The notes: a model not told the origin generated them from the sequence alone. Numbered from the stretch's first letter, positions 23,396 through 63,292 are shown. The stretch: 64,000 bases of DNA from a virus (IMGVR_UViG_3300042542_006078); one strand, 5' to 3'. Translations and numbers: made by a program.

Positions 23396-23401
23396 TAAAT
23401 A
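23396..23401 (+). promoter_or_regulatory. TAAATA late-promoter-like element 4 nt before ATG (also 25017-22 +; 30965-70, 55202-07, 60643-48 and 62413-18 on -)
   Basis: Same hexamer 4-5 nt upstream of start codons that lack an SD sequence; resembles the T4 late promoter TATAAATA. Confidence 0.6.
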
Positions 23402-23405
23402 AATT

Positions 23406-24176
23406 ATGAAGAATTTCAAAGCATGGTTATTTGAATCGGAAAGTTATATCGATGATAAAACAGTGTCTTACTCAGATTGTTTTGGCATTATAAGAGATGC
23501 CATAAAACTAAGAGATTCAGGAATTAGTGCATCAAGTTTAATTGATGCTAGAATTGGCATGGACACTAAACCATTTTTTTATTTGGAAGATATCAATAAA
23601 GTTTTTCTTGGAAATTTTGGCTCATATCATAGATCAATAATCGATAATCTTAGAATTAGAAATTCTGAAGATGAAAATTTGCGAAATGAACTAGCAAGGC
23701 TTTATTACGGTCTTTCTGGCGCAAATTCCCCCATGGGAGTAGTTGGTAGAATTGCATATGGAATAAACTACAACAATATTAATATTTATATTCCTCGTGA
23801 TTTGAGAGTTGATTTGGAAAGAAAAAATATGCAAGAACTCAAAGATAAAATGAGGGGCATGGATATCATTGCTTTTTACAAATCAAAGAGTGGTTCTAAA
23901 ACTGACGAGAATGTTAAAAAGTGTCTTAAAAAGCTTGAACAAGATGGCCATGTCAGAAATAAAGACAAAACAATTGTAATTAATGAGAATAAAGTCACCA
24001 TTTTTGATTCCCTTGAAGATGATTATAAATCTCCTGAAAATGAAAAAGAAGAAATTAAGCTTACAATGCAACAATCAAAAGAAAAAAGTCGTAGATTTAT
24101 TCCTAAGCCTCAAACAATGAGACAGGCAGCATACCAAGCTGGTATTCCAATGGGTGATTGGAACACAAATCTTTAG
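23406..24176 (+). CDS. Phage protein, paralog family A (FxxW N-terminus, shared C-terminal tail)
   Basis: MKNFKAWLFESE; YH...GRIAYG core; ends MRQAAYQAGIPMGDW. Confidence 0.8.
   Translation: MKNFKAWLFESESYIDDKTVSYSDCFGIIRDAIKLRDSGISASSLIDARIGMDTKPFFYLEDINKVFLGNFGSYHRSIIDNLRIRNSEDENLRNELARLYYGLSGANSPMGVVGRIAYGINYNNINIYIPRDLRVDLERKNMQELKDKMRGMDIIAFYKSKSGSKTDENVKKCLKKLEQDGHVRNKDKTIVINENKVTIFDSLEDDYKSPENEKEEIKLTMQQSKEKSRRFIPKPQTMRQAAYQAGIPMGDWNTNL
24069..24161 (+). repeat. Shorter copy of the C-terminal cassette repeat
   Basis: caacaatcaaaagaaaaaagtcgtagattt...ggtgattgg. Confidence 0.85.
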
Positions 24177-24190
24177 TGAATAATAAAAAT

Positions 24191-25012
24191 ATGAGTAATT
24201 TATCTTTTAAGAAATGGTTTAATTTGCGAGAATCTGATGATTATTCTCCTGATATGAAAAATGCTTTAGAAATATTCATGAAACCAGAAGAAATTTTTGA
24301 AATTTCGCCTGCTTCAATTGCAGATGGTAATCTCACAAACACTCACAAGCCATTCATTTATCTAGAATCTACAGATACAGTTTATTTGGGCATAGATGAA
24401 GGCTATCATAATAATTTAATTTTTCAAAAAATTAAGCAAGATCCAAATATAGGACTGGAACTTCGGAAAGCTTATGATGGAATTCACCAATCAGATTCCG
24501 ATGTTGCTGCTGCTGTTGGCAGAATAGGCTATAAGGTTAATTTTGCCAAATTACAATATAGACTTCCAGCAAATAATATCAAAAAGTTTTTATATGGAGA
24601 TGACGAGACAAATTGGCCTGAAATTATAAAAAAGCTAGCCGTTATTCCCTATCCAATTAAACAAATTTTCGATCAAATTGATTTAATATCAATTTATCAA
24701 ACACCGATACCAATCGCAGCATCATCCTGCAAAAAATTACAAGAAAACGGAGAAATTCGTGACCCATTAAAAACCGTTGTATTTCTTAACAATAAAGTGC
24801 ATATGTTTAATGAATTAATTACTCATGCATCTTCTCCATCCAGCGAAGAAGAACAATTAGATAAAAAAGAAGAACCTAAAATTACAACTCAGCAATCAAA
24901 AGAAAGAAGTCGTAGATTTATTCCTAAGCCTGAAACAATGAGACAGGCAGCATACCAAGCTGGTATTCCAATGGGTGATTGGACAAATTATATTGGCAAA
25001 ATTTTTCGGTAG
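24191..25012 (+). CDS. Phage protein, paralog family A
   Basis: Likely start MSNLSFKKWFNLRE; FIYL...YH...VGRIGY; shared tail. Confidence 0.8.
   Translation: MSNLSFKKWFNLRESDDYSPDMKNALEIFMKPEEIFEISPASIADGNLTNTHKPFIYLESTDTVYLGIDEGYHNNLIFQKIKQDPNIGLELRKAYDGIHQSDSDVAAAVGRIGYKVNFAKLQYRLPANNIKKFLYGDDETNWPEIIKKLAVIPYPIKQIFDQIDLISIYQTPIPIAASSCKKLQENGEIRDPLKTVVFLNNKVHMFNELITHASSPSSEEEQLDKKEEPKITTQQSKERSRRFIPKPETMRQAAYQAGIPMGDWTNYIGKIFR
24818..24987 (+). repeat. 170-bp near-identical C-terminal cassette, copy 1
   Basis: Matches 25675..25844 with few substitutions. Confidence 0.92.
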
Positions 25013-25026
25013 ATTCTAAATAATAT

Positions 25027-25884
25027 ATGTTAAATTTCAAAAAATGGATTGAATTTTTTGAGGCATCTTTGACTAATGAGTTATCAATTGAAGATGCTGT
25101 AAATGCATTTGTTGAACCAAGACCAGAATATGAATTGACAGCATCTACACTTATCGATGCAAACTTGTGTCCAAGCAATAAGTCATTTATTTATCTCAGT
25201 TCAAAAGACAAAATCTATGTTGGACAAAATGGCGAATATCATAGAGAAATAATCGCAAGAGAAAAAACAATAGATCCCATCTTGGCATCGGAGCTTCAAA
25301 GATCTTACGAGACATCATATGGAGGAGAATCTTATACTGCGCCAGAAAACGCTGTTGGTAGGATTGGCTATGGAGTCAATTATGATAGACTTAAAAAAAT
25401 ATTACCACTTGCAAATATCAAAGGTTTTTTGAGCAATGAAAAAGAAATTAGTGATGGAGAAGCAGCAATGCATATTTTTATGCCAACATCATTTCCTATC
25501 AAAAAATTGTTCAGCGAAATTGATGTCATAGCAATTTATTCTGGAGTCAAAACCCCAATTTCTGTTGCTGCAAGAGCAGTGCAATTATTGATGGAGAATT
25601 CATCATATTCGCCAAGAAATATAGACAACACAATAGTCATGTATGACAATAAGGCCCATTTTGGCAAAGAATTCATTACTCACGCATCTTCTCCATCCAG
25701 CGAAGAAGAACAATTAGATAAAAAAGAAGAACCTAAAATTACAACTCAGCAATCAAAAGAAAGAAGTCGTAGATTTATTCCCAAGCCTCAAACAATAAGA
25801 CAGGCAGCTTATCAAGCTGGTATTCCAATGGGTGATTGGACAAACTACCCCTACATTTTTAGAGGAAATAATTATAATGGATAA
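25027..25884 (+). CDS. Phage protein, paralog family A
   Basis: MLNFKKWIEFFE; FIYL...YH...VGRIGY; shared tail. Confidence 0.8.
   Translation: MLNFKKWIEFFEASLTNELSIEDAVNAFVEPRPEYELTASTLIDANLCPSNKSFIYLSSKDKIYVGQNGEYHREIIAREKTIDPILASELQRSYETSYGGESYTAPENAVGRIGYGVNYDRLKKILPLANIKGFLSNEKEISDGEAAMHIFMPTSFPIKKLFSEIDVIAIYSGVKTPISVAARAVQLLMENSSYSPRNIDNTIVMYDNKAHFGKEFITHASSPSSEEEQLDKKEEPKITTQQSKERSRRFIPKPQTIRQAAYQAGIPMGDWTNYPYIFRGNNYNG
25675..25844 (+). repeat. 170-bp near-identical C-terminal cassette, copy 2
   Basis: Matches 24818..24987. Confidence 0.92.
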
Positions 25885-27538
25885 GGTTAATTTTTCAGAA
25901 TGGCTTGAACTTCGTGAAGAAAAAGATGCCTGTTACCATAAGGTAAAAAGACGATACAAAGTATGGCCATCAGCCTACGCCTGTGTTCCTACAAAAACTT
26001 CAAAAGCACTTACAAAAGAAGGCTGGAAGCATTACGAAGAATTAAGTGTAGGAGATGAAATACTTACATACAGTATGGCAAAGGATTCCTTAGAATTTCA
26101 ACCAATTAAAAATTTGTATTCTTATCAAGACGCTGAAACATATGTAGTTCAAAATGGCAATAAAGGTTTGAAGTTTGAGTGTACTCCAAATCATAAGTGG
26201 GTTGTTAAATATAATTCATGCAAAGAGAATATAGGAACAAAAAAATACACAGATTTAGTTAATGATATGAGGCTTGTCACAACTGAAGAGTTATTGGCAG
26301 ACTCTGAAAGCAATGGAAAATTAGTAATAAGTTCAAATTATAGTGACGATAATATTGTAGAATTAGAAAATTTCAATCTTATTGAGGAAAGAAAAGCTGA
26401 TGTGTGGTGTCCTGAAACAGATAATGGCACTTGGTTAATGATGCAAGAAAATGATGGACATGAAATTATAACAATTACTGGAAACTCAGGCGCACTTGTC
26501 CGTTGTCGAAAAGTTGGAGCAAAGAATTGGGGAATATCTGAAAATGTTGATAAAATTGCAATCAGATATTTTCATGAAGATGGTCGTGGATTAATGAATA
26601 ATTCATCTTTGAATTATGACAAATTAGATGATGAAGAATATTCCGATGTAGAAGATGAGTATCTAGGATTAAGTCAACCACCATCAGACTTACACAATAA
26701 AAAAATAGTTTTTGCATTTACGCCTGAAGGCGAACAAAAACACAATAGACTAATCGAACTCTTATCTAAAGCATCAAAAAAAGGTGTTCGTCGTGAAGTC
26801 TTAGATTTATCAGATTATCAAATAGAGTGGCAAAGTGGAGATGGTCAACTGGGATTAAAAAAATTAAGAAATCAAAGAGATGAATTTCATGAAGGAACTT
26901 TTGATTTAGAAAAAGAGAGAGGTCTTCGTGGTTGGTTTGATCGCAACAAAGGAAAAGGATGGATTGATTGCAAAGCCAGTAAAAAAGGACATCTGGTGCC
27001 ATGCGGCAGAAAAAAAGCAGGAAAAGGCACTGAACGAAAATATCCTGCTTGCAGACCAACATTAAGTGCCTGCAACAAATCGAAACATAAAAAGAAAACT
27101 AGTAAGGCAATAAGTTGGAAAACCAAAAGTGAAACTTATTATCACACCACAAACTGCATTTTGGAGGGCATGATGAACAATTATTATGAATGGATGAATT
27201 CCATAACACACTTTTTTGAAAATCAAGAAAATTATGGGTCTTCATGGGGAGAGATCGAAAATTTTCTAAAAAGAAGCACATGCAATGAAAAAAGAGTTCA
27301 CGGTTTTTGTAGCCACCCAAGATGTGATAAGGCTCAAAATTTGATGGACACCGCAAGTGATGGTTCAGCTATGTCGCCAAATGACATGGAGAGAATTCAA
27401 AAATTTATTCATGAAAAATCTTGTTTTTCGATGAGAAAAGAAGGAATGTGTTTTCATCCTGCTTGTCGCACAAATCAAAGACACGCTGAATGGATTCAGG
27501 ATCAAATCAATCAAAATTACGGAAGCGAAGCGATCTAG
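25877..27538 (+). CDS. Multi-module Cys-rich phage protein containing a mini-intein
   Basis: Likely start MDKVNFSEWLELREE; extein DACYHKVKRRYKVWPSAYA / SGALVRCRKVG; later GLRGWF...PCGR...YPACRP module and two CxHPxC repeats. Confidence 0.8.
   Translation: MDKVNFSEWLELREEKDACYHKVKRRYKVWPSAYACVPTKTSKALTKEGWKHYEELSVGDEILTYSMAKDSLEFQPIKNLYSYQDAETYVVQNGNKGLKFECTPNHKWVVKYNSCKENIGTKKYTDLVNDMRLVTTEELLADSESNGKLVISSNYSDDNIVELENFNLIEERKADVWCPETDNGTWLMMQENDGHEIITITGNSGALVRCRKVGAKNWGISENVDKIAIRYFHEDGRGLMNNSSLNYDKLDDEEYSDVEDEYLGLSQPPSDLHNKKIVFAFTPEGEQKHNRLIELLSKASKKGVRREVLDLSDYQIEWQSGDGQLGLKKLRNQRDEFHEGTFDLEKERGLRGWFDRNKGKGWIDCKASKKGHLVPCGRKKAGKGTERKYPACRPTLSACNKSKHKKKTSKAISWKTKSETYYHTTNCILEGMMNNYYEWMNSITHFFENQENYGSSWGEIENFLKRSTCNEKRVHGFCSHPRCDKAQNLMDTASDGSAMSPNDMERIQKFIHEKSCFSMRKEGMCFHPACRTNQRHAEWIQDQINQNYGSEAI
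25982..26485 (+). mobile_element. Mini-intein (168 aa, no homing endonuclease)
   Basis: Block A CVPTKTSKALTKEGWK..EELSVGDEILT; block B TPNHKW; block F VWCPETDNGTW; ends ITGN followed by +1 Ser. Confidence 0.88.
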
Positions 27539-27540
27539 TC

Positions 27541-29394: not shown

Positions 29395-30960
29395 TCAAGA
29401 CATGCCTAAAAGATTCTTGGCTTTAGCTTTCACTTCTTCGGCTATTTTCTGACCTGCATCGCTTTTAGCAAGTAGATCAACAACTTGGGAAAAGTAAAAA
29501 TAGACTAGAGAAACAAACTTGAATTTACCAGCTATTTCAAGGAAATCTGTGAATCCTGCTCCGTATGCCGTCAGGCCAGCAACTGTAGGACCAAGTATCG
29601 GATTTTTGATTGTGTGCTTTGCCATTCCAAGCATTGTTCCAAGTATCTTATTCAAAGATTCCAATTTCAACTTGTCCCTATCACCAGATCCAATTCCCTT
29701 TATTATTTCGTAAATCGCCAATGCTGCGGCGATTTTCTTACCAGTCAATTCAATCATCTTTGAATAACCAAACAAGAAATCAGCGCCCTTAATTGTTTTG
29801 CTTATTGTTGGATTTTTAGTGGCAAGATCGTAAACATTGGATATTTGAAGGTTTGAAAACATATCTCCAATTACATCATGCAAAGAATCAACATCTGAAA
29901 ACATATGATGAGCAGCATCTGCATAACTATGTTCCATAGCCTTGATTCGAGGCGTTCGCCAATCGCCAGATTGTGTTATCGCAGTTAAGTGGCCAAGGCT
30001 GACCCCTGTTCCAATAGTAGTTGGATCAATTATCCCCATATGTTCTTTTTCCTTGCCTATCATCTTCAATAAGTTTTTCTTAGGTCTGTATGGATTAATT
30101 TTGAACTCTTGATTGTTCACACTAAGAACGATCTCATCGCCACTACCAGACTTAACTATTTTGTTGCCAACAATTTGGCACCAGTCATTCCAAAGAACCT
30201 TTGAAATATCATCGCCATACAAATCTTGCAAAGTATCCAAGAATGCTGCATAGCCTCTCATTCCTACATTGCTGTCTTTTGCGACAACATCAAGAATTGG
30301 GTTTCCTTCTTTGTCCAAAACAACTTTCTTATTTTTTTTCCTCTTTTGCAAAGTAAATCCAGATTTTTTTTCTTTTGCTTTAATGTCTGCTCTTAACATT
30401 GTGTCATATGCTCTGGTATTCACAGAATCGATACAACCGAATTTACCAACTATCAATTGTGTTGCGAAAGCAGCCTTTGTAATTCCCAATCCCTCCACAT
30501 TTTGGTAAATGTACTTCCATATTTCAAATTCAGATGAAGTGCTAAGTGATGTGGTTTCACCTTTCATGAGTCGCATGATATTGCTAAAAATGGAATTTTT
30601 ATTTTTCCACAAATCAGCGATATAGAAAGCTTGATTTGGTCTTTTTTTGTTTGCGCCTATCATGTTTGCATATTTGTGGAAAGGCTGTAATTTATAATTC
30701 CAATTGTCGGTCCTTACTGCATCTTCAAAAATCCATTTCAAGAATTCAGGGAATGTTTGCCTTACAATCTGCCACTCTTTCTGAATTGTATAAAACACGA
30801 AAGCAAACACGATGAACATGTTCGTAGAATTGCTTTTTGCAAATTCATTTATTTTTGGGTTATGCAAGCAAAAACCGCTTACTTCTGAATCTCTTTTTTG
30901 ACCCAAAGTGATTAAAGTATCTTCTTCGGCAATTAGCCAATCTTTGAAATTAATGTTCAT
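29395..30960 (-). CDS. FxxW-leader protein with HhH-GPD glycosylase-like motif
   Basis: MNINFKDWLIAEE; VEGLGITKAAFATQLIVGKFGCIDSVNTR resembles an HhH hairpin plus catalytic Asp. Confidence 0.55.
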   Translation of the reverse strand: MNINFKDWLIAEEDTLITLGQKRDSEVSGFCLHNPKINEFAKSNSTNMFIVFAFVFYTIQKEWQIVRQTFPEFLKWIFEDAVRTDNWNYKLQPFHKYANMIGANKKRPNQAFYIADLWKNKNSIFSNIMRLMKGETTSLSTSSEFEIWKYIYQNVEGLGITKAAFATQLIVGKFGCIDSVNTRAYDTMLRADIKAKEKKSGFTLQKRKKNKKVVLDKEGNPILDVVAKDSNVGMRGYAAFLDTLQDLYGDDISKVLWNDWCQIVGNKIVKSGSGDEIVLSVNNQEFKINPYRPKKNLLKMIGKEKEHMGIIDPTTIGTGVSLGHLTAITQSGDWRTPRIKAMEHSYADAAHHMFSDVDSLHDVIGDMFSNLQISNVYDLATKNPTISKTIKGADFLFGYSKMIELTGKKIAAALAIYEIIKGIGSGDRDKLKLESLNKILGTMLGMAKHTIKNPILGPTVAGLTAYGAGFTDFLEIAGKFKFVSLVYFYFSQVVDLLAKSDAGQKIAEEVKAKAKNLLGMS

Positions 30961-31883
30961 GAAATATTTAGCGATTCTTTTAGAAAATTATGGAAATTTT
31001 CAGGGCAAAACCATTTTTCCCATGTTTGTCTTGCAGCTATTGAAGCTTGTATCAAATTCCTTTTTTCTTTGAATTCATATATTTTCTGAGGTATTGAATC
31101 TATTTCGCTTTCTTTTACTCTTAAAACAAATTCGTCGTAATTAATTTTATGCTCAATCGGCAGTTTTGTTTCATCAGAGATTAAAATAGGAATCCTGCCA
31201 GAAGCGATTGTTTCAAAAAATCTTACAGATGACATGCCAAACCCTTTTGGGCATAGAACGAATTTGCTCATTTGTATCAAGCCGATATAATTTCTTTCTA
31301 TTTCTTCTGTTTCTCTTCCCATAAATTTTTCAAACCAATAGCGTTTATTTATCACGACATTTTTCAAGCCAGAAACAGAATTGGCAGCTTTTTTCCTGAT
31401 TTCATTGCAAAAGTATCCTTGAAAAGAAACATCGTAGTGGGCAAGGTCTATAGAAGAAATTAATTTCGGCACTTCAACAATTGGCTGATAATACAAACAC
31501 TTGTTTTTACTTGATTTGTTTACAGAAAAGGCAAAGACAATTGAATTTTCTAATGTTTTGATTGGTCTTGTTTCATCAGATCCAACAAAAAATATGTGCT
31601 TCTCGGGTTTGTGTTTGAAAAAAGCCAGATTTTCAGACAAGTGATTAAAAAGTTCTTTTTCGTCTTTTAGATGATGTGTGTGGATTATTAAATAAGGCAC
31701 AAGGAAATAATCACATTCAGATGGACTGTAGTTGGGTATTGAACTAATTTTTCCTATGTGGTGATAAGAATTGTTGAGTTTTGGCTTTTTTCCAATGTTT
31801 TTTTCATCAAATGGAGTGCAACACCATTCAGAGTTGTGGGTTCTTTCATTTAGGGATAAGCGATCATAGACATGAAATTTCAT
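30957..31883 (-). CDS. Exostosin family (GT47) glycosyltransferase
   Basis: YDVSFQG, SKFVLCPKGFGMSSVRFFETIASGRIPILISD. Confidence 0.9.
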   Translation of the reverse strand: MKFHVYDRLSLNERTHNSEWCCTPFDEKNIGKKPKLNNSYHHIGKISSIPNYSPSECDYFLVPYLIIHTHHLKDEKELFNHLSENLAFFKHKPEKHIFFVGSDETRPIKTLENSIVFAFSVNKSSKNKCLYYQPIVEVPKLISSIDLAHYDVSFQGYFCNEIRKKAANSVSGLKNVVINKRYWFEKFMGRETEEIERNYIGLIQMSKFVLCPKGFGMSSVRFFETIASGRIPILISDETKLPIEHKINYDEFVLRVKESEIDSIPQKIYEFKEKRNLIQASIAARQTWEKWFCPENFHNFLKESLNIS

Positions 31884-32430: not shown

Positions 32431-32516
32431 AATAGTCAATCCAGAGCAGATTGAATTGACTACAACCCTATTATTGTTAATTCAAAACAAAAGTCAAGCG
32501 AGATTATATATAAATC

Positions 32517-33242
32517 ATGATGAATTTCAGGGCATATTTTGAAAAAGTCGAATTGACTCTCAAATACCACGATGATTTGAATCCATCTTTTTGGAAGAAT
32601 GGAATTCTTGACTCAGATGTTAGGGATCATTTGCTCGACATAGCTGAATTCTTTCGTGATTATGCTAATATTCCCAAAGATGCGGTCAAGGACATAATCT
32701 TCACTGGAGGCAACGCAAACTACAATTACACCGAGTTTTCCGATGTTGATGTTCATCTGATAATTGACAAGAAAAAGCTCAAGGTTTGCGATCCTGAAAT
32801 CATGGATGATTATCTTAGTGATAAAAAAGCCTTAATAGCTCTTACTCACAATATCAAGATAAAAGGATTTCCTGTTGAGTTGTATGCACAAGATGAGAAA
32901 CAAGCCACATCATCTGACCAAGGAGTATTCAGTTTGAAAGACAATAAATGGATTAAAAAACCAGCCAAGAAACAAATTAATCTAAGAGATCCCTATCTTG
33001 TTAAAAAGATAAAAGATATTGAAAATCAAATTAAAAGATTCATTGACGGTAAATCAAAAGATGTTAAAGAGATGGATGACTATAAAGAAAAATTGAGAAA
33101 AATGCGAGGATCAGCAGTTCAGCATGGAGGAGAATTCAGTTTGGAAAATTTGGCATTCAAAGAATTGAGAAATAGAGGACTTCTTGAGAAGTTTTCTGAC
33201 TATATTAAGGATGTCGAAGACAACAGGCTCACTCTTAAATAA
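32517..33242 (+). CDS. Pol-beta-superfamily nucleotidyltransferase
   Basis: IIFTGGNANYNYTEFSDVDVH (hG[GS]x9-13DxD) and PVELY; N-terminus MMNFRAYFE. Confidence 0.85.
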   Translation: MMNFRAYFEKVELTLKYHDDLNPSFWKNGILDSDVRDHLLDIAEFFRDYANIPKDAVKDIIFTGGNANYNYTEFSDVDVHLIIDKKKLKVCDPEIMDDYLSDKKALIALTHNIKIKGFPVELYAQDEKQATSSDQGVFSLKDNKWIKKPAKKQINLRDPYLVKKIKDIENQIKRFIDGKSKDVKEMDDYKEKLRKMRGSAVQHGGEFSLENLAFKELRNRGLLEKFSDYIKDVEDNRLTLK

Positions 33243-33267: not shown

Positions 33268-33945
33268 ATGTTAACTAATTATCGAGATTGGAGAAGAAAA
33301 TTTAGGGAAGATTTTGCATCTTCTTTCCCCAATTCAAAAAGAAAATGGGTTTCCATAGAAAAGTCCCATATAATCGAAGATCCTGATTTGGCTCAACAAA
33401 TTTTTGATCTTATTGATGATGCCTACAAAGGAATAGGCGGAAATGCCAATATTAGGTCGAAACATGATTTAACTAGCGAGTTTTTGAAGGGCGATCTTTC
33501 AGTAGTGAAGGCTATTGATTTGGATGACGATTCTGATCCAGATGCTGTGATTGGCTATAAGCGCACAGACAAAGGCAATAAGGCTGTTCTTTCGGCAGCT
33601 AAAGGATCGAGCGAAGAAGCTAAAAAATTATTGATTGACAAAAAGAAAGAGGAATTCAATAAAGGTGACGCTTATGGCGAAGTGTCTGGACCTCTTGCTA
33701 AGAAATTAATTGATGCTACAGTTCCTGTGATAGAGGACGAGGAAACTGTTAGGAGCATGTTGCCCGGCAAAAATATCATATGGCACGGTGAACATCCAGA
33801 GCTTGCAACTTTGCCACCTAAAATAGCAGCAACATTTGGCAAGCATAAAGGTTGGTACACTAGGTTGATTGGTGGACACCCTCATACAAAATTGATGATA
33901 GGCTTGAGAAATAAGCCCGGCCAAGTAACTGAAATTGGCGACTGA
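33268..33945 (+). CDS. Phage hypothetical protein with YRDW leader
   Basis: MLTNYRDWRRKFRE; GAGG RBS. Confidence 0.7.
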   Translation: MLTNYRDWRRKFREDFASSFPNSKRKWVSIEKSHIIEDPDLAQQIFDLIDDAYKGIGGNANIRSKHDLTSEFLKGDLSVVKAIDLDDDSDPDAVIGYKRTDKGNKAVLSAAKGSSEEAKKLLIDKKKEEFNKGDAYGEVSGPLAKKLIDATVPVIEDEETVRSMLPGKNIIWHGEHPELATLPPKIAATFGKHKGWYTRLIGGHPHTKLMIGLRNKPGQVTEIGD

Positions 33946-36172: not shown

Positions 36173-36247
36173 GCAAAAAATCTATCTTTGCTTGTGAATA
36201 ATTCTCTCCACATTCCTAAATAATTAGAAATGTGGAGAGATTTTTTT

Positions 36248-37300
36248 ATGAATAAGTTCAAAAGCTGGTTGTTAGATCGTGACACTAATCTTCTGGAAAC
36301 CATGTCCAGAGAAAAAATGATGGAAGATGATCTTGATGCCTTGAATTATGCAAAAAAGCAAAAAAGACAAGAAAAAGAACTTGATGAAAAAATTCGTATA
36401 ATTAAGTATCTTGCTAAAATTAAGAAAAAAATAGAACAATTCGTTGACGCACACGACAAAGGCGCTCAAGCTCTTAAGCTGATAGCAGCATCTTTGTTGA
36501 CTCACGAAAAGGGCAGAGAAGGCATTAAAACCCATGTTCGTCATGTTTATAGCAAGGATTTGAAAAGCCTCAAAGACTTGCAGAAGATTTTCACTCATGA
36601 AAACTTGATCAAGCTTTTCCACGATGTTGATGCTCTCCACTCTTTGAGCATGATATTGGATTCCGATTTTGAAAGTCATGTCGGCAATTTGGAAAAAGAT
36701 TCTCAACACGGTCATATTGATCATTCACATGGCGAGTTGGGCAAAAAATTTGCAAGTTTTGTTGTGAGCCATATCAAGCATGCTGCTGACGATGTTTTAG
36801 CATCATTCCTTCAAGATCATAATAAAGATGAAGGTCAAGACGACGATGTTCCTCAAGATCAGGAATCTGGCGATGAAGCCGTTCCAGATATGTCTGCTGA
36901 TGAAATGAATCCTGATATGGAAGTAGGCGGTTCAGCACAAGATGCAGGTCAAATGGGTCAGGATGCAGGTCAAATGGGCCAAGATGCAGGTCAAATGGGT
37001 CAGGATGCAGGTCAAATGGGTCAAGATGCAGGTCAAATGGGCCAAGATGCAGGCCAAATGGGTCAGGATGCAGGCCAAATGGGCCAAGATGCAGGCCAAA
37101 TGGGCCAAGATGCAGGCCAAATGGATCAGGATGCAGGCCAAATGGATCAGGATGGATCTTCAGAAGACAATGCTTTGATGCCACCTGTTGGTATGGCCGC
37201 TCCTCAAAGACCTGCTGGCGCAGAAGGTGCAGAAGGTGCAGAAGGTGCAGAAGGTGCAGAAGAAGATGAAACGCAAACAGCAGCAGCACCATCTGTGTAA
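36248..37300 (+). CDS. FxxW-leader protein with acidic low-complexity repeat tail
   Basis: MNKFKSWLLDRD after a GGAG RBS; (QDAGQM[G/D])x10 and (AEG)x4. Confidence 0.8.
   Translation: MNKFKSWLLDRDTNLLETMSREKMMEDDLDALNYAKKQKRQEKELDEKIRIIKYLAKIKKKIEQFVDAHDKGAQALKLIAASLLTHEKGREGIKTHVRHVYSKDLKSLKDLQKIFTHENLIKLFHDVDALHSLSMILDSDFESHVGNLEKDSQHGHIDHSHGELGKKFASFVVSHIKHAADDVLASFLQDHNKDEGQDDDVPQDQESGDEAVPDMSADEMNPDMEVGGSAQDAGQMGQDAGQMGQDAGQMGQDAGQMGQDAGQMGQDAGQMGQDAGQMGQDAGQMGQDAGQMDQDAGQMDQDGSSEDNALMPPVGMAAPQRPAGAEGAEGAEGAEGAEEDETQTAAAPSV
36938..37147 (+). repeat. 21-bp tandem repeat x10 (QDAGQMG)
   Basis: ca[a/g]gatgcagg[t/c]caaatgg[g/a][t/c]. Confidence 0.95.
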
Positions 37301-53312: not shown

Positions 53313-54398
53313 TTGTTTGAAGGACGGAAGGAGAGAAAGCACACCATGAAGAGTATTTTTGTCAAATGGCTTGAAATTTATAGTCGAGACGAAAAAAAGT
53401 TTAACTTATTGGCCAAAAAAATTATTGGTCAAGATGCACCGCCAATTCAAGCATATGGTTGGGTTTACACAGACCCAGAAAAAGACTCAAAAACACATAT
53501 AATTGGTTACATGAACAAAAGGTCAAGCAACAAAGCTATGACCGGAAATATAAGTTTTATGGCAGCATGCCGAGCCCTTTTGGAAATATCTGGCAATCGT
53601 GATGCACAAGCCGAAATCAGGAATATCGTATACCTTCATGAATTACGCAAATTTGGCTTTCATGAATTGAATCTAAGCATCGATCAGGCTGTTGGTCTTA
53701 TCAATACAGATGTCAATCTAGATGTAGATGAATTCACATCCATGTTTCCTCTCATGGTTGTCAATTTCCCAGATGAACTTAGGCAAGTTTATTTGGAAAA
53801 AAATCAATTTTTTCCAAGCATCGCATTTGTTCGACATGAACCACAACAGGGAATGCTCCTCATAGAATTTATCCACCATTTTCAAGATTGGGACAATGTA
53901 TCAAACGGTTGCCTTACCTTTTTCAGCAAGAAAAACAATAACATTTTTGATACAATTCAGGAAAAACTGAATTGGGATGAGACAAAATCCGTCATGAGGC
54001 CAGAAAGTATAGATGCTGCAAAACTTGCCATCAACAGCATTCTTCTCGCCCAAAGAACCAATAACATGGTCAGAATCGATAAAAATCAAAACGATCCAAT
54101 ACAACAACAATTCAAACGCACCATGAGGGGAACTGGAAACCTTGGTAAAATTACAGAAGCAACATTTTGGTCATTCCAGCCAAACCTAAAGACTTTCAAC
54201 TCCCAGCAAGAATCTAGGTCTGGAGAAGAAAAGGGCAAAATTGTTCGTCCACACTGGAGGAGAGGACATTGGAGAAGAGTTGCACATGGAGAGAAAAGAA
54301 TCGAAAGAAAATGGATGCACTTTCCAGCAGTTTTTGTAAACGCAGAAAGATTCGATGGGAAAATGAATCAGACTTTCACATCACATAATCTAAATTGA
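53313..54398 (+). CDS. Phage hypothetical protein with C-terminal RPHWRRGHWR motif
   Basis: VRPHWRRGHWRRVAHG...WMHFPAVFVN. Confidence 0.75.
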   Translation: MFEGRKERKHTMKSIFVKWLEIYSRDEKKFNLLAKKIIGQDAPPIQAYGWVYTDPEKDSKTHIIGYMNKRSSNKAMTGNISFMAACRALLEISGNRDAQAEIRNIVYLHELRKFGFHELNLSIDQAVGLINTDVNLDVDEFTSMFPLMVVNFPDELRQVYLEKNQFFPSIAFVRHEPQQGMLLIEFIHHFQDWDNVSNGCLTFFSKKNNNIFDTIQEKLNWDETKSVMRPESIDAAKLAINSILLAQRTNNMVRIDKNQNDPIQQQFKRTMRGTGNLGKITEATFWSFQPNLKTFNSQQESRSGEEKGKIVRPHWRRGHWRRVAHGEKRIERKWMHFPAVFVNAERFDGKMNQTFTSHNLN

Positions 54399-54401
54399 CA
54401 A

Positions 54402-55196
54402 TCAAACGCTCTTCCATCTTGGAAGTCCAATCTTTGCACGATTTTTTTGAATCTGAGCCAGAGCGGACAAAGGATCAAATCCCTTTGGCTCATTAGGTCC
54501 AAGGTCTGGTATTACAACCCGTCCTTTGTACATTCCTATATTTGTCGGACCTGCATCATCATGCTTGAAACCAGTAGCCCCGTACAACATTGACAAAGTA
54601 TCCATCATGACAAGCATGTGTGGAAGCAAATCATCATTTCCACCATTATCACGCAAAGTTTTCAAACACAAATCTTCCCTCTCTTTTTCCGATGAAGGAA
54701 ATCCGTCCATTTCAGGATTTTCATCTATAAGAACAGTCATGAAATCTGCTGCTTTACGCATTTCTTGTGGAACACCAATTGTATCAACCCAATGCTGTAA
54801 AATAGCGTAAATGTTGTCTCCAAGATATTTGACAGCAACAATTGGCGCTGGGACATCATCCCTTCCAGCAACCATTGTCGCCACATTCGCCTCAACCCTA
54901 TTGGCAGACATCTTGACAACATGGTCAATTAGAAAATAACAACGACCTGCACCACCATCAGCATATGAAGGAGGAATTTCATCCGGCAATTCAACATTTA
55001 GACTTTTAAGCCAAGGAATTAAAGGGGAATTAGGATCAGTCCAATACTTCAAAGTCTCATCATGAGCTTTTCCCTCAGTTTTCATCTTGGACTTGCTAAA
55101 CTTTGGAATGACAAATAAATTGCTCATCAACTTGGACAATTTTCCAACCTTGTCCTTCATCTCGCTTTTTGCAACGAATTCTCTGAATGTAGTCAT
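54402..55196 (-). CDS. Protein-kinase-like (PKL fold) protein with capsid-targeting-like leader
   Basis: Likely start MTTFREFVAKSE; GGAGRCY, VVKMS, HDDAGPTNIG, IPDLG. Confidence 0.75.
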   Translation of the reverse strand: MTTFREFVAKSEMKDKVGKLSKLMSNLFVIPKFSKSKMKTEGKAHDETLKYWTDPNSPLIPWLKSLNVELPDEIPPSYADGGAGRCYFLIDHVVKMSANRVEANVATMVAGRDDVPAPIVAVKYLGDNIYAILQHWVDTIGVPQEMRKAADFMTVLIDENPEMDGFPSSEKEREDLCLKTLRDNGGNDDLLPHMLVMMDTLSMLYGATGFKHDDAGPTNIGMYKGRVVIPDLGPNEPKGFDPLSALAQIQKNRAKIGLPRWKSV

Positions 55197-55274
55197 AATT
55201 TTATTTACTAAATAATAACCAATTTCTTCACATAAAACCTTATATAATACAATCATATTCATCAAGGATTATTC

Positions 55275-56709: not shown

Positions 56710-57831
56710 ATGCAAAATATACCTCTATTCAAAGTTTTTATAGAAGAAAATTGCCATAAAGAAATATCTAAAACAATACAATCTGGATTCATTGGTCAAG
56801 GACAAAAGGTAGAAGATTTTGAAGTCGAATTGCAGAATCTCCTTAAATCTCCTTTCATAAATACAACGAATTCAGCAACATCCGCAATTCATTTAGCTCT
56901 CCATCTAATAAAAGAATTTTCAACTAAAACAAGAAATCAAGTCATCACAACACCATTGACATGCACAGCCACAAACATACCAATTCTTCACTACGAAATG
57001 AATCCAGTTTGGGCAGACATTAACCCAATGAACTGCAATATAGACATTGATGATGTTCATAAGAAAATAGACAAAAACACATTAGCAGTCATGGTTGTTC
57101 ATTGGGCAGGTTATCCAGTCGATATGGATAAAATTAACGACATACTTGATCATCACCAAAGCAAAAACAAATTCAGACCATTCCTAATAGAAGACTGCTC
57201 CCACGCCATCGCAACAAGATCACATTATCCAACTGATAATAACTTCGCTGTATACAGTTTTGGACCAATCAAACACCTCACAACAGGAGATGGAGGATGC
57301 CTAGTTTCTCCAAACGAATACTTCCACAAAAAAGCCAAATTACTTAGATGGTACGGACTTGACAGAACATCTAAAAAAGACTTCAGATGCGAACAAAATA
57401 TCGAGGAACCCGGATACAAATTCCACATGAATGACATCAATGCAACAATAGGACTTCAAAACATTAAAAAAATTCACGATATCGTCAACAAACATAGAAA
57501 AAATGCTGATTATCTCAGGAACAAAATAACCCAAGTGACACACCTTGAACACGAAAAACAATCATCAGACTGGATTCTCACAGTCCATGTGAAAAATAGA
57601 GATCAATTCGTTAATCACATGTCTGAAAATGGAATCCAAACAAGCAGAGTCCATGATAGAAATGATAAACATACAATTTTCAACAAATATAAAACAGAAT
57701 TACCTAAAACAACACAAACTTGTGATACAATGATTTGCATACCTTGCGGATGGTGGCTCAATCAAGAAAACCTCGAACACATTGTCAACAAGGCAAATGA
57801 AGGAGATTGGAAATGTTCTCTTACGAATTGA
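56710..57831 (+). CDS. DegT/DnrJ/EryC1/StrS family sugar aminotransferase (PLP-dependent)
   Basis: NSATSAIHLAL, TTPLTCTAT, IEDCSHA, YSFGPIKHLTTGDGG, GYKFHMND. Confidence 0.95.
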   Translation: MQNIPLFKVFIEENCHKEISKTIQSGFIGQGQKVEDFEVELQNLLKSPFINTTNSATSAIHLALHLIKEFSTKTRNQVITTPLTCTATNIPILHYEMNPVWADINPMNCNIDIDDVHKKIDKNTLAVMVVHWAGYPVDMDKINDILDHHQSKNKFRPFLIEDCSHAIATRSHYPTDNNFAVYSFGPIKHLTTGDGGCLVSPNEYFHKKAKLLRWYGLDRTSKKDFRCEQNIEEPGYKFHMNDINATIGLQNIKKIHDIVNKHRKNADYLRNKITQVTHLEHEKQSSDWILTVHVKNRDQFVNHMSENGIQTSRVHDRNDKHTIFNKYKTELPKTTQTCDTMICIPCGWWLNQENLEHIVNKANEGDWKCSLTN

Positions 57832-58328: not shown

Positions 58329-60638
58329 TTAATTTCTAGCCCATCTATCCGACTTTCCACTATAATAATCTATTTTGCCCTTTCTTCTTGAACCAAAATT
58401 AAACTTCCCAGCAATATCCTCAACATCTCTTCCCTTTTCAACCCTTATCTTTAGATTGACTATATCTTTTTTAAGATCGCTAATCATGTTCGACAATATT
58501 GGCAATTTTTCCAAGAAATTTTCTTTCTCTTTTTCGCTAAGATTTTTTTCTTTACTTAGAACATTATAAACATTTTTTAATTTGATCAATTCATTTACAA
58601 TATTTTTCACCTTATCAGATAAAACATTGACTCCCAACTCTCCTGATCTGTTGAAATTATCACGCATCTTTTCAATCAACTTTTCAAGCAAATCAAAATT
58701 TTTAATCTCTGACCTAGCAAAAGAAGTATGTGTTATGACATCAGACAAAATCATATTATAATCAGCACCAGCATCGAGAAGCTTTTCAATATATTTAATT
58801 TTTAAGGAATGACTTAAACCATTAGTGCTTAAAATACTTTCTCCCATTTCGCTCAAATGAATGCCACTCATAAGAGAATGACGAGAATCAGTATCATTCT
58901 TATCAGATTCAATTTGTTTTATCTCATGATCTAAAATATGATCGGCAATTTCCTCTTTACCCATATGCAAAGATTTTACCAATAAATTTATATTATTGGT
59001 ACGAGCATTTTGCCAATTTTCATTATTTGAATAATCTTTGTCGTAATAATCTTCTCCAGAAAAATCAAATTCCCTGTCTTTCATTCCTTTAGGACGACCA
59101 TACTTGCCTCCAGAATCGAAATGCTTCTTGAAGCTATCATCATCGCCTTTATCCAAACTTATGACCATTTTGGCGTGAGGATGTAATTTTTCTATATCTG
59201 AATTTTCCAAAGATGATAATTCATTTCCGGCAATATCAATACCAGCATGACTGTTTTGAATTATAACTGACTTATAAAGATTAAAATCTTTTTCTCTCAA
59301 AATTTCTCTTTCATCTACACACAAAGGAACAATATAACCTTTGCGACCAAGAGTAGCATTGATTTTTTTAGACATTCTTTTCCATAATTCATCAACCAAT
59401 TCTTTATCCCCATTGTCAAGCAAAGTCCTCATTAAAAAGCCTTCTCCAATTTTTCCATAAACTCCCATTTGAGTAATATTATCGGCAAATTTAGAAATAA
59501 CTTTTTTTCTCTCATCCCTCATGTTCTTGCTAATGAATTCAAATTCTTCTTCATTTATCGGGTAGGCATGAACATTGGCATCCACAGAAATTAAACGAAA
59601 ATGCATATACTTTTTGCCCAAATCCTTGTCAGACAAAATATAATTTAACTGAGAACCAGTCATATTCAAGCCAGTAGAAACATATTGTTCCAACAAATCC
59701 CTTAACTTGTGCTTAACCAAGAAATCAAACTGCTCATCACTTAACTTGTGGCCACGACCTATGTAAGAACTCTTTTGAGCAGGATTTAATCTTATAAACC
59801 AATCATAAGAAAGATTCTCATTTCCCAAAAGTTCATTTTCTTGCTTCTCTAAATCATTGTGAGGATTGTTCTTGAATATCGAAGTGTCAATTCCTTTGCT
59901 TCTCAGATAAATAAAGTATTTTGTGTGATCCACATCTCTTAAATCGGAATTTTCAGGATTTTGACAACTTCCTGTCCTGTTAATCCTATCAGTCAATAAA
60001 ATCTTGCCATAACTACCAACATCAACTACCACAATATCCAAATTATCATTCCTATTGGAATCAAAAACGAAATAAAATGTCGCAGCATGAGAATCACGAT
60101 ATGACTTAAACATTTTGTTTCCCGGCTGAGAAATACAAAATGTCGTTCCACGACCCAATATTATCGCATCAGCAACATTTTCAGCCTTGAAAACTTTAAT
60201 ACTATTATCACTATTCGCAAAAACAGGACGCAAACGGGAAATATCCTCGTCACTAGGACGATAACGGGAAGCAGATCTGCTCCTCTCCTCTTCCTCCATT
60301 CCATGCATCGCTGCTGTCCATTCCAAATAATTGGAATATTGCCTAAACTGAGTATTCAAATTTCCACTATCATCAAATGTAAACAACTTCATCTTGTTCC
60401 TGCCAACAAGACGATGATAAACATCAATGTCATTGCCCAATGTTCTTAAATCAGGCTGACTTTTACTAAAATAAGCAGCAACCAACAAATACTTGTTCTT
60501 CTCTTCAGGTTTGATCCCATCTGGCAATATCTCACCTAACTTAATCAAAAAATTAGTATCACCACCAACCAAATTCAACGCAATCTCAGAAGGCTTCTTA
60601 GCCTCATTAAAATAAAACCATTCACTAAAGTTTAACAT
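58329..60638 (-). CDS. Large FxxW-leader phage protein, paralog of 60741..62408
   Basis: MLNFSEWFYFNE; shared LLVAAY, GTTFCISQPGNKMFKSYRD, FYFVFD and KSSYIGRGH blocks; helical C-terminus. Confidence 0.85.
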   Translation of the reverse strand: MLNFSEWFYFNEAKKPSEIALNLVGGDTNFLIKLGEILPDGIKPEEKNKYLLVAAYFSKSQPDLRTLGNDIDVYHRLVGRNKMKLFTFDDSGNLNTQFRQYSNYLEWTAAMHGMEEEERSRSASRYRPSDEDISRLRPVFANSDNSIKVFKAENVADAIILGRGTTFCISQPGNKMFKSYRDSHAATFYFVFDSNRNDNLDIVVVDVGSYGKILLTDRINRTGSCQNPENSDLRDVDHTKYFIYLRSKGIDTSIFKNNPHNDLEKQENELLGNENLSYDWFIRLNPAQKSSYIGRGHKLSDEQFDFLVKHKLRDLLEQYVSTGLNMTGSQLNYILSDKDLGKKYMHFRLISVDANVHAYPINEEEFEFISKNMRDERKKVISKFADNITQMGVYGKIGEGFLMRTLLDNGDKELVDELWKRMSKKINATLGRKGYIVPLCVDEREILREKDFNLYKSVIIQNSHAGIDIAGNELSSLENSDIEKLHPHAKMVISLDKGDDDSFKKHFDSGGKYGRPKGMKDREFDFSGEDYYDKDYSNNENWQNARTNNINLLVKSLHMGKEEIADHILDHEIKQIESDKNDTDSRHSLMSGIHLSEMGESILSTNGLSHSLKIKYIEKLLDAGADYNMILSDVITHTSFARSEIKNFDLLEKLIEKMRDNFNRSGELGVNVLSDKVKNIVNELIKLKNVYNVLSKEKNLSEKEKENFLEKLPILSNMISDLKKDIVNLKIRVEKGRDVEDIAGKFNFGSRRKGKIDYYSGKSDRWARN

Positions 60639-60664
60639 GAATTATTTAGAGAATATCAACGAAA
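60627..60664 (-). repeat. 38-bp exact repeat spanning promoter and start codon (second copy 62397..62434)
   Basis: aaagtttaacatgaattatttagagaatatcaacgaaa at both sites. Confidence 0.9.
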
Positions 60665-60740
60665 TTTATTCTCTTTCCTTGACTATTTCAAATAGTCAAC
60701 AACATCATCACCAATTTGTGCTTATTCATAAAATACATCT

Positions 60741-62408
60741 CTAACTATAAGAATATTCACTACTTCTTCTCGCTTGCAAATAATCAACTATATCCTTATG
60801 ACCATTTTGTTCTGCACCAGCAATTGCATAATTATAATTACTTATTTCTGCGCCTTTGAATAAAAGATATTTAACAAGATTCAAATTACCAGCCGATGCT
60901 GCATTAGCAACTGCGTTTTTACCTATTTCTATTGGAAATTTATTTATTTCTTCGGCTTTATCAATAAGATCTTTAACAAAATCTAAATCACCAGTTGCCG
61001 ATGCAGAAGAAATTAATTTTTCGCTAATTGGGACACCTTTTTTTACAAGATATCTAACAAGATCAAAATTTTTATCTCTTGTTGCTACAAGGACTGCGTC
61101 ATGGCTAACTGGGGCACCTTTTTCTACAAGATATCTAACAATATCAAAATTTTTATCTTTTCCCGACCTCACTGTTTGCCATATTGCTACAAGGACTGCG
61201 TTTTCGCTAATTTTAGCACCACTTTCTACAAAATGCTTAACAGTATCAAAATCATTAAATTCAATTGCCATGTTTATTTTGTTATAATCTTCACTATCAT
61301 TTATTTTCTCATAATAGCTTTCTTTCTGTTTAGAACTCAATAAATAATATTCTTTAGCAGTTAAATTTCTACTATTCTGATCAGAAATTAATCTATTATG
61401 AATATAATTGTCCTTCAAATCACGAATTTTTGCTATTTTATCAATTTGATAATCATCTAATGGCAACCCAGTTTTAACATATTGAGTCAGCAGAGAATTA
61501 AACTTGTTATCCAATAAAAAATCAAATTGCTGATTAGTCAATGGATGCCCTCTTCCAATATATTTTGACTTATAATCAGGAGACAAAGAAATAAACCAAT
61601 TCAAATCACCTTTAGCTTCTCCTAATTTTTCATCTTCTTCTTTTTCTTCTGGCGACTTGGGAATATTTACAATTTTTGATAAATCAATACCCTTCTCCTT
61701 AAGATATTTCATATAAGACTTAGGATCAGTAGTCAATTCTCCAGTATATGGATCTAATGTTTTGCCAGTCGTATTGACCTTGTCTGTGAGAACAGTTTTA
61801 TATTGTGTTTGATCAACAACCACAATACCCAATCTGTCATCCCTCGTATCATCATACACAAAATAAAAGGTGCTAGTCTGATTGTCACGATAACTTTGCC
61901 ACATTCTGTTTCCGGGTTGACTTATGCAAAAACTCTGACCTTTTCCAAGTATAATACATTGTTCTGTATTGTTAGCTTTATAAACCCTTATCTTGCCACC
62001 TGAGCCAGTCAAAATTGGCTTCTCATTCTGGAAATCAATATCGCTAGGCTTAAAATTAGATTTTTCCTTATTTGATTCTTCTCCTTTATTTCCATGAATA
62101 ATCTGAGTCCAATAAAGATAATTATCCCAAGGACTAGGTGGTTTTTTAGAAACTAAATCCACAGATATCATTTTCATCTTGTCTCTGTTCAAATAACCAA
62201 TATAATCCTTTATATCGATTTTAATTTGATTCAAATCTTTAGTTTTACTGTAATAATATGCTGCTAGCAATAATAACTTATCTGCATTTTTATTGTTTTG
62301 TGGAATAACTGTGGATAAAGCATTCAAAACAGCACCAGCCAACTCTGATGCCAAAGCCTTCTCTTCTTTGGTTTCATTTATCAATAACCATTCACGAAAG
62401 TTTAACAT
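60741..62408 (-). CDS. FxxW-leader phage protein with C-terminal ankyrin repeats
   Basis: MLNFREWLLINE; repeats such as NFDIVRYLVEKGA, NLNLVKYLLFKGA and GHKDIVDYL. Confidence 0.88.
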   Translation of the reverse strand: MLNFREWLLINETKEEKALASELAGAVLNALSTVIPQNNKNADKLLLLAAYYYSKTKDLNQIKIDIKDYIGYLNRDKMKMISVDLVSKKPPSPWDNYLYWTQIIHGNKGEESNKEKSNFKPSDIDFQNEKPILTGSGGKIRVYKANNTEQCIILGKGQSFCISQPGNRMWQSYRDNQTSTFYFVYDDTRDDRLGIVVVDQTQYKTVLTDKVNTTGKTLDPYTGELTTDPKSYMKYLKEKGIDLSKIVNIPKSPEEKEEDEKLGEAKGDLNWFISLSPDYKSKYIGRGHPLTNQQFDFLLDNKFNSLLTQYVKTGLPLDDYQIDKIAKIRDLKDNYIHNRLISDQNSRNLTAKEYYLLSSKQKESYYEKINDSEDYNKINMAIEFNDFDTVKHFVESGAKISENAVLVAIWQTVRSGKDKNFDIVRYLVEKGAPVSHDAVLVATRDKNFDLVRYLVKKGVPISEKLISSASATGDLDFVKDLIDKAEEINKFPIEIGKNAVANAASAGNLNLVKYLLFKGAEISNYNYAIAGAEQNGHKDIVDYLQARRSSEYSYS

Positions 62409-62497
62409 GAATTATTTAGAGAATATCAACGAAAATTTATTGTCTTTTTTTAACTGATTTCAAATAATCAAAAATATCATTACATAATTTTTATCAA

Positions 62498-63292
62498 TCA
62501 AGACTCAATCCAATCCTGTCCATTATGAACTAAAATTTTAGTCACAGGTAAAGAACTTTCTCCTGTGTACTTCAAAGCCATAGGATTCTTTCCATAATTA
62601 TTCTGGAAAAACCAAGATTCTAACTTTTTATGCAATTCTGGATTACGATCCTGATGAGCATAATAAAAAGGAGCTATATTAGATGCTGCTCCTGCACTGT
62701 AATAAGGGTTATCATTCAACAAAGGATCACGAACACTTCCGATTCTACCGGGAAATTTACCATACAAATTTCTGTATTCAGGATTCTTCTTGATAGTCGA
62801 AAATGGAACTGGCTCGGCATCAATACCAGTCAACTTTTCTCCAACTTCATCCTTTGACAAATATTTTTTTGTCTTGTCTGTTAAATTAACATCTCCCAAC
62901 TTGTTCAGCTTTCCAACTCTTTTAGAAGCATAAGTAAGAATGTCTTTCGCATGATTCTCAATGTCCAAATCCCATTCACCAAAATCAATATTTGGAACAT
63001 CTATTACAACAACTATAGGATTACCCTCTAAAGAACCCTTCAAACCATACAATTCTCTTTTCATACGAGCCAAAGCATGAGTTTTTGCGCTTTCATCCGA
63101 TGTCCAAAGAAACAAACCACCTCCCTGACCATGACCATATCCCGAAGACCTAGCACCATCCCTCTTAAATGAATTCAATACCTCATCGTCCTTTCCAGAA
63201 CTAGTTCCATGATAAAACCTGAAAGGACCACTAATAACAAAATCATCAGAATAAACCTCATCATGTCGAAGCCAATCTTTGAAATATATCAT
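62498..63292 (-). CDS. ADP-ribosyltransferase-like protein with FxxW leader
   Basis: MIYFKDWLRHDE; FYHGTS...GGGLFLWTSDESAKTHA resembles the H-Y-type ART strands. Confidence 0.5.
   Translation of the reverse strand: MIYFKDWLRHDEVYSDDFVISGPFRFYHGTSSGKDDEVLNSFKRDGARSSGYGHGQGGGLFLWTSDESAKTHALARMKRELYGLKGSLEGNPIVVVIDVPNIDFGEWDLDIENHAKDILTYASKRVGKLNKLGDVNLTDKTKKYLSKDEVGEKLTGIDAEPVPFSTIKKNPEYRNLYGKFPGRIGSVRDPLLNDNPYYSAGAASNIAPFYYAHQDRNPELHKKLESWFFQNNYGKNPMALKYTGESSLPVTKILVHNGQDWIES

Follow-up and report, generated by a model that had tools for sequence, protein, structure and literature searches.

A shared N-terminal tag on diverse proteins of a huge T4-related phage as a candidate capsid-targeting sequence

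Why should a dozen genes of one phage begin with nearly the same short peptide? The question is raised by a 64,000-nucleotide stretch of an uncultured virus (IMGVR_UViG_3300042542_006078; this whole stretch is called the window here), in which 12 open reading frames (ORFs) between positions 23,396 and 63,292 share such a tag and many have a TAAATA-like box just before the start codon. A preliminary description of this region had proposed that the tag resembles the capsid-targeting sequence (CTS) of phage T4 and that the genes encode cargo injected with the DNA. We suggest that the shared N-terminus is a CTS of the T4 type, which would bring the proteins into the prohead, be cleaved by a gp21-type protease and allow injection with the DNA, and that most of the genes are transcribed late without a leader. 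We give this combined reading a probability of about 0.58. ORFs are named below by the position of their start codon.

Start codons, N-terminal peptides and upstream strings were re-read for all 12 ORFs and agree with the preliminary description. When the first aromatic residue is taken as position 0, the consensus is F/Y (0), K/R/S (+1), any residue, W/F/Y (+3), a hydrophobic residue (+4) and Glu (+8). The aromatic residues at 0 and +3 are present in all 12 ORFs, with W at +3 in ten; +4 is hydrophobic in 11, and Glu occupies +8 in ten, the exceptions being 36248, with Asp at +8, and 33268, with Glu at +9. The motif begins at residues 4-6 in every case, and thus lies at the extreme N-terminus. 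Counted from the initiator Met, the conserved positions of the window tag are F4, W7 and L8, followed by Glu. The codons for F, R, S, L and E vary from gene to gene while the residues are kept, which indicates selection on the peptide, not the RNA.

A strict regular expression (^M.{1,5}[FY]..[WFY][LIVMF].{0,4}E), with internal Met residues as the control, found 12 N-terminal matches in the window against 0.41 expected (P=2e-14), although it misses two of the noted ORFs (33268 and 36248). In 2000 shuffles of residues 2-20 the matches averaged 0.47 and never exceeded 4, against 11 observed; the proposed motif is therefore real and commoner than in shuffled N-termini. F is residue 4 in seven of 11 regex matches. 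The looser string F[KRS]xW occurs 36 times in the six frames of the window, nine of them at ORF starts. ORF 53346 (MKSIFVKWLEI) is likely a 13th tagged member. Two regex matches are false positives, in the DegT protein at 56710 and in PrkA of a relative (G002), where the motif belongs to the protein's own domain. By BLASTP the 12 ORFs form nine independent families. The earlier wording that they are otherwise unrelated holds at that level, but not within one paralogue trio (23406, 24191 and 25027; 34-48% identity) and one pair (60638 and 62408; 43% identity).

The tag is not confined to the window. Relatives in IMG/VR were found by searching with the window's ClpX-like ATPase (7515-8801, + strand), which has a C4 zinc finger and is kept across a clade of huge phages at 52-77% identity. 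They are G001 (80 kb, a strain variant of the window phage, 99.4% identical), G002 (168 kb), G003 (373 kb), G004 (527 kb), G005 (572 kb, with terminal repeats) and G006 (390 kb), of which G004, G005 and G006 were treated as complete. A megablast of 10 kb of the window against phages gave no match. The strict regex finds 8 N-terminal matches in G001 (0 expected), 11 in G002 (0.42), 23 in G003 (3.95), 38 in G005 (4.4; P=5e-23) and 16 in G006 (4.9), a strong enrichment in all five records, as in the window, with P values from 6e-5 to 5e-23 over independent genomes. The T4 genome shows no such enrichment (4 matches, 2.6 expected), and two of its four matches are the leaders of the internal proteins (IP) IPII and IPIII.

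Conservation of the tag can be separated from that of the protein behind it. Twenty ortholog pairs of G003 and G006 retain the tag, and in one of them the bodies are 38% identical and the tags nearly identical. An alignment of 77 tagged proteins has near-invariant columns only at F4, E12 and an isolated P286, the last probably an alignment artefact. The tag also has lineage-specific dialects: in the window F is residue 4, with N before it and E at +8, and in G005 F is residue 3, with D, E or T before it and E at +5. Such dialects would fit co-adaptation to a shared receptor within each phage. Of 13 tagged window proteins none could be matched to a homologue in G002 or G006, whereas 34 of 78 others could (P=0.0013). 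The hypervariable internal proteins of T-even phages likewise evolve fast (PMC3012670), and they form a diverse, defence-countering set of which the CTS is the sole common part (PMC3012670).

A CTS of the T4 type presupposes a T4-type head, and its genes are present in the relatives. Peptidase_S77 (PF03420, the T4 gp21 type) scores 92-101 bits in G004, G005 and G006, and the adjoining capsid gene matches Gp23 (PF07068) at 278-295 bits, both above the Pfam cut-offs, so the gp21-like protease that the preliminary description had proposed to look for does exist in this clade. In G006 the two genes stand together with terminase, portal and a scaffold-like gene. G003 was considered as a case without head genes and rejected, as a second contig of the same sample (L145) carries them. 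The capsid gene was found at 332 loci in IMG/VR, with at least 77% identity among the 80 loci listed; its product has a likely L[FM]NE cleavage site, aligned to T4 by eye. Short words of the G006 capsid protein and protease recur in a single stretch of the window phage's genome, some 227 kb upstream of the window. Together, these relatives and short words argue that the window phage has a T4-type head and belongs to a widespread clade of huge T4-related phages.

The likeness to T4 extends to single residues. Mutagenesis of T4 IPIII showed that CTS residues 4 and 7 serve capsid targeting and residues 8 and 10 processing, and that Asp at position 10 blocks processing and keeps targeting (PMC9026906). 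The leaders read from the T4 record are MKTYQEFIAE (IPI-III), MELITELFDE (Alt) and MAKINELLRE (gp24). Like these, the tag has aromatic or hydrophobic residues at 4, 7 and 8 and then Glu (a Glu follows position +4 in 11 of the 12 window ORFs). The T4-like leader of the preliminary description thus coincides with the experimentally mapped targeting residues and may correspond to the processing residues as well (PMC9026906). The closest match to MKTYQEFIAE comes from a small, positionally conserved gene of the clade's head module. It lies some 3.6 kb upstream of the gene for the capsid protein, is encoded on the other strand and starts MKTF[SQ]x[FY][VIL]xLKE in many loci (L143-L222; 376919-377218 in G006). 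A PHROG search with it gave no match. Its product, acidic in G006, is a candidate core or internal protein.

The second shared feature is the box at the start codon. TAAATA followed by four nucleotides and ATG (N4 spacing) occurs five times in the window against 1.49 expected; none of 100 shuffles reaches five, and all five sites belong to tagged ORFs. The preliminary description was right on these sites, as it was on the five-nucleotide gap (N5) at 55196 and on TTAATA-N4 at 63292. In G006 the box TA[A/T/G]ATA most often stands 4, 5 or 6 nt before ATG (17, 21 and 10 genes, against about 2 at other spacings), and some 50-60 genes per relative genome have the box 4-6 nt before ATG. Over five records, 178 genes with this box-at-ATG layout have in common the hexamer TA[A/T/G]ATA and a preceding A or C, while the full T4 octamer TATAAATA is not conserved, and a weak A/T patch (AAA then TT; information content up to 0.34 bit) lies 15-20 nt upstream of the box.

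Tag and box tend strongly to occur on the same genes, the odds ratio being 99 for the window (P=1.3e-6), 55 for G003, 16 for G005 and 18 for G006 (overall range 12-99). The idea of a late promoter for the cargo set agrees with the link and the spacing, but the layout is a general one and not cargo-specific: only a fifth to a third of box-at-ATG genes in the relatives are tagged. At the G006 protease gene the box lies further upstream and is followed by a Shine-Dalgarno (SD) sequence, as expected of a promoter. At the N4 sites an in-frame stop inside or beside the box makes an upstream start impossible. Given that the T4 late box spans -13 to -6 (PMC2988020), N5 spacing would put +1 on the A of ATG. 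Leaderless late mRNAs would be the simplest reading of the box-at-ATG arrangement.

The preliminary description had also noted a string further upstream, TTTCGTTGAT, shared by three tagged genes. Its four exact copies in the window do include three before tagged genes, but two of those three lie in the duplicated pair, and with one mismatch allowed it is not enriched (16 matches, 10.7 expected). We rejected it as a separate general element; AAATTT is the one part of it that falls on the A/T patch of the clade.

We envisage the system as follows. The tag would be a short amphipathic propeptide that attaches the protein to the assembling prohead core through aromatic residues near positions 4 and 7 and a hydrophobic one near 8. 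The Glu a few residues on would be the cut site of the gp21-type prohead protease, and the protein, once released from its tag, would remain inside the capsid until it passes into the host along with the DNA. Many fast-evolving accessory proteins would have acquired the tag; candidates in the window are the nucleotidyltransferase, the kinase-like enzyme, the ankyrin protein and, less surely, the AcrVA2-like one. Late transcription of most tagged genes would proceed from a TA[A/T/G]ATA box 4-6 nt before ATG, giving an mRNA that begins at or beside the AUG and is translated without SD.

Several points weigh against this proposal. The Glu is at position 12 in the window tag and at 10 in T4, with a spacing that depends on the lineage, and the P3 residue is hydrophobic in about eight of the 12 window tags. 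With a median isoelectric point of 6.6, the tagged proteins lack the basic character of the T4 internal proteins, and three tagged homologues of CCA-adding enzymes or poly(A) polymerases are not obvious cargo. No T4-type head is known to package 30-80 different proteins. The protease of the window's own genome is seen through short-word matches. On the transcription side, the N4 spacing is 1 nt short of the T4 rule, and the late sigma factor gp55 of T4 found no match in the relatives as a protein query; the corresponding profile (phrog_234) gave weak matches in four of five relatives (E 1.4e-6 to 2.5e-3). The two sigma-like ORFs of the window match phrog_351, not phrog_234.

The alternative that survives best accepts that the tag leads to the prohead core, and holds that most tagged proteins are scaffold-like or transient, degraded by the protease or expelled before or during DNA packaging, and not injected. 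There is a model for this in T4, where most core proteins (gp22, gp67, gp68) are fragmented and leave the head (PMC9026906), and the small size of the tagged head-module gene, its core-like acidity in G006 and the acidic, repetitive nature of 36248 would suit it. However, folded enzymes of 250-770 aa are numerous among the tagged proteins (kinase-like and nucleotidyltransferase here, ART and Acb1-like in relatives), and the tagged proteins as a group turn over fast, like arms-race genes. We consider transient core proteins an unlikely explanation for the majority of the set.

Another possibility is that the tag is an N-terminal address for a different process, for instance a degron or other signal read by the ClpX-like unfoldase (7515-8801), or a helix that directs localisation. 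ClpX recognises short N-terminal motifs, the zinc-finger ATPase is kept throughout the clade, and some tagged proteins, such as the homologues of CCA-adding enzymes, resemble intracellular enzymes. Yet this would leave without explanation why the tag matches the positions that determine T4 targeting, why its most T4-like version is on a head-module gene and why it is associated with a late box, and we regard it as slightly less likely than transient core proteins.

If tagged genes are read from leaderless mRNAs, the conservation might stem from demands that ribosome loading or promoter escape place on the 5' coding sequence, instead of marking a protein signal. The statistical tie between the tag and the box-at-ATG layout and the A/T-rich first codons would be in keeping with this. 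But W (TGG) and E stand at fixed positions, the R, S, L, F and E codons vary under constant residues, five of the 12 tagged genes here and 20 of 38 in G005 have an SD or no box, and about two-thirds to four-fifths of the box-at-ATG genes in the large relatives are untagged, all of which makes a pure RNA constraint very improbable. Chance or plain paralogy, in the form of one duplicated family sharing an N-terminal domain, could at most appeal to the five of 12 ORFs in two paralogue groups and is already contradicted by the nine independent families, the near absence of other conserved columns among the 77 aligned proteins, and an enrichment that recurs in independent genomes and that shuffles (at most 4, against 11) do not approach.

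If the shared N-terminus is a capsid-targeting sequence, the tagged proteins are the predicted cargo. Searches with the 12 ORFs against Pfam and PHROGs mostly gave no match, atlas searches gave sub-threshold leads or none, PDB sequence searches with 30960, 25877 and 60638 yielded nothing usable, and neither 25027 nor 60638 had a tblastn match among phages. The paralogue trio lies on the + strand. ORF 23406 (23406..24176, 256 aa, MKNFKAWLFESE) has TAAATA at 23396-23401, N4, and TTTCGTTGAT at 23379-23388; 24191 (24191..25012, 273 aa, MSNLSFKKWFNLRE) is without an exact box and has TAATAA 4 nt before ATG; and 25027 (25027..25884, 285 aa, MLNFKKWIEFFE) has TAAATA at 25017-25022, N4. It is followed by 25877 (25877..27538, +, 553 aa, MDKVNFSEWLELREE), which has a weak Hint-like match. 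Directly behind its tag, residues 13-39 match phrog_727 (6.7e-11) and phrog_38880, and this short conserved stretch looks like a small module without an assigned role.

ORF 30960 (29395..30960, - strand, 521 aa, MNINFKDWLIAEE; TAAATA at 30965-30970 on the minus strand, N4) has a sub-threshold HhH-GPD-like match from the atlas search as its sole functional lead. The nucleotidyltransferase that the preliminary description counted among the cargo is 32517 (32517..33242, +, 241 aa, MMNFRAYFE), a member of phrog_36119 (1.4e-75) with TATATA at 32507-32512, N4. ORF 33268 (33268..33945, +, 225 aa, MLTNYRDWRRKFRE) has a looser tag, with R at +4 and E at +9, and is preceded by an SD, with TAAATA about 26 nt upstream. 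In 36248 (36248..37300, +, 350 aa, MNKFKSWLLDRD) Asp replaces Glu at +8. This protein is acidic; about 11 tandem QDAGQMG heptads and then AEG repeats make up its C-terminal half, itself acidic. Translation might alternatively start at 36230, 7 nt downstream of a TAAATA. The candidate 13th member, 53346 (53346..54398, +, 350 aa), has a precomputed Pfam match to the anti-CRISPR family AcrVA2-like (PF26125), which a local Pfam scan did not report.

The remaining members are on the minus strand. ORF 60638 (58329..60638, 769 aa, MLNFSEWFYFNE) and its paralogue over the first 350 aa, 62408 (60741..62408, 555 aa, MLNFREWLLINE), both have TAAATA at N4 (60643-60648 and 62413-62418) and TTTCGTTGAT upstream of it (60655-60664 and 62425-62434). 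C-terminal ankyrin repeats in 62408 bear out the ankyrin protein that had been claimed. ORF 63292 (62498..63292, 264 aa, MIYFKDWLRHDE; TTAATA at 63297-63302, N4) has a homologue of 48% identity that retains F, W and E of the tag; its AlphaFold2 (AF2) model (predicted local distance difference test, pLDDT, 48) is too poor for a structure search. The earlier labels ART-like for 63292 and glycosylase-like for 30960 are not established.

The claimed kinase is 55196 (54402..55196, -, 264 aa, MTTFREFVAKSE; TAAATA at 55202-55207 on the minus strand, N5), which appears from its AF2 model (pLDDT 89.9) to have a protein-kinase-like, aminoglycoside phosphotransferase-like fold. The model has a tag helix at residues 4-10, a disordered linker at 29-41 and a globular body. 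Among the 50 Foldseek matches listed, most are aminoglycoside phosphotransferases, with MEK1 kinases and the Cph001 enzyme besides, at low TM-scores of about 0.3. Across 48 homologues of 36-80% identity the residues H212-x-D214...N219 and D231-L-G233 are invariant, which would fit a kinase-like catalytic loop. Nearly all of these homologues start M-x-x-F-[KR]-x-[FYW], and two distant ones have TAAATA at N4 or N5 before ATG.

In the relatives, a Pfam survey of 77 tagged proteins from four genomes found PolyA_pol (three), Toprim (two), ART-PolyVal, Acb1-like/2H, HAD_SAK, AAA_33 and ankyrin repeats; RNA-repair domains are also found among tagged proteins of relatives. In another lake sample (L006) two ORFs, of 627 and 141 aa, take the place of the 769-aa ORF 58329-60638, and in G001 ORF 25877 encodes 586 aa in place of 553; tagged genes thus vary among strains. 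In a 634-kb uncultured phage (L005, LR745206), the homologue of the 32517 nucleotidyltransferase starts MKLNKFYEFVQSDLE and has TATATA 4 nt before ATG. This genome has a weak S77 match (20 bits), and the tag and box layout may extend beyond the clade studied here.

A second N-terminal pattern, [YW]L(x)LSG[ILV]..(N/S)E, is shared by four small ORFs of the window, at 37322 (+), 50403 (-), 55275 (+) and 55979 (+), two of which are paralogues; a regex for it found no clear match in the relatives searched, being imperfect and missing two of its own four ORFs. Other genes of the window encode, besides the ClpX-like ATPase, two sigma-like proteins, an RNA ligase, a SNF2 helicase, sugar-modifying enzymes and a DUF1559/prepilin N-methyl protein. 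The last (15736-16812, -, within 15626-16920) is absent from the 99.4%-identical G001, and its presence or absence is a recent indel. Proteins of this kind are typical of Planctomycetota, a possible pointer to the host.

What would follow if the tag works as it does in T4? The tag sequence alone would then mark the capsid-borne proteins of an uncultured huge phage, and hundreds of uncharacterised ORFs over the clade, given the 332 capsid-gene loci in IMG/VR, would become ranked candidates for host-takeover or anti-defence effectors. The cargo of T4-type heads would prove much more varied than the handful of proteins recorded for T4. The window phage itself probably ships an unusually large enzyme kit into its host together with its DNA. 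The wider claim, that this huge-phage clade loads several dozen enzymes per genome (kinase-like, nucleotidyltransferase, ART, Acb1-like, AcrVA2-like and RNA-repair) through an expanded capsid-targeting code and from leaderless late mRNAs, so that the tag could predict an injected anti-defence proteome, is one that we put forward only tentatively. If the box-at-ATG genes are leaderless, a large class of leaderless late mRNAs would be on record for a T4-type phage for the first time. In the literature searched, we found no paper connecting capsid-targeting tags with huge phages; a paper on moraphages (PMC12619734) concerns a lineage other than this clade.

Known systems offer partial parallels for each component. 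Leaderless mRNAs such as that of lambda cI from PRM and those of mycobacterial genes have a -10-like element at a fixed short distance before ATG and no SD. In the clade the spacer is shorter (4-6 nt), and the layout defines a class of genes across the whole phage that goes with a T4-like late box, beside SD-led genes of the same genome. For the protein side, there is a parallel in the phiKZ-like giant phages, whose cleavage sites follow a small-residue-x-Glu logo and for whose ejection proteins we know of no shared N-terminal address of 10-12 residues. In phiKZ, 201phi2-1 and SPN3US, a distant relative of gp21 processes many different head-internal proteins behind Glu, and these are ejected into the host (PMC9026906; PMC7411985, PMC10052503); the cleavage has few determinants other than the Glu (PMC9026906). 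The clade differs in that its head genes are truly of the T4 type (Pfam Gp23 and S77 above cut-off) and that its tag is a defined N-terminal helix.

The T4 late promoter TATAAATA, dependent on gp55, gp33 and gp45, has in common with the clade's box the A/T core TAAATA, which in the clade too would lie at the -10 position, and an A/T-rich spacer, and it likewise precedes both head genes (in the clade, the G006 protease) and putative cargo genes (PMC2988020). It differs from the clade's box, in which the hexamer and a preceding A/C are conserved and TATATA and TAGATA variants are common, and T4 late promoters are without an upstream element such as the weak A/T patch. T4 late mRNAs have SD leaders, unlike most tagged genes here, and a box abutting ATG is found at one T4 ORF against the 50-60 genes of each relative.

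The T4 CTS is the nearest relative of the tag. Both stand at the extreme N-terminus of otherwise unrelated, fast-evolving proteins in genomes with a gp21 protease and a gp23 capsid. In this clade W is preferred at position 7, and the predicted window cargo is neutral and mostly of 225-770 aa, whereas T4 internal proteins are small and basic. The scale also differs: two regex matches are confirmed in the 169 kb of T4 (about eight prohead core proteins in all), against 12-13 in the 64-kb window and 38 in G005, so that tag density is expanded at least tenfold over T4 (12 ORFs per 64 kb against two confirmed per 169 kb). The T4 CTS itself is already known; what would be new is a T4 capsid-targeting system that is much expanded and coupled to putative late promoters abutting the start codon.

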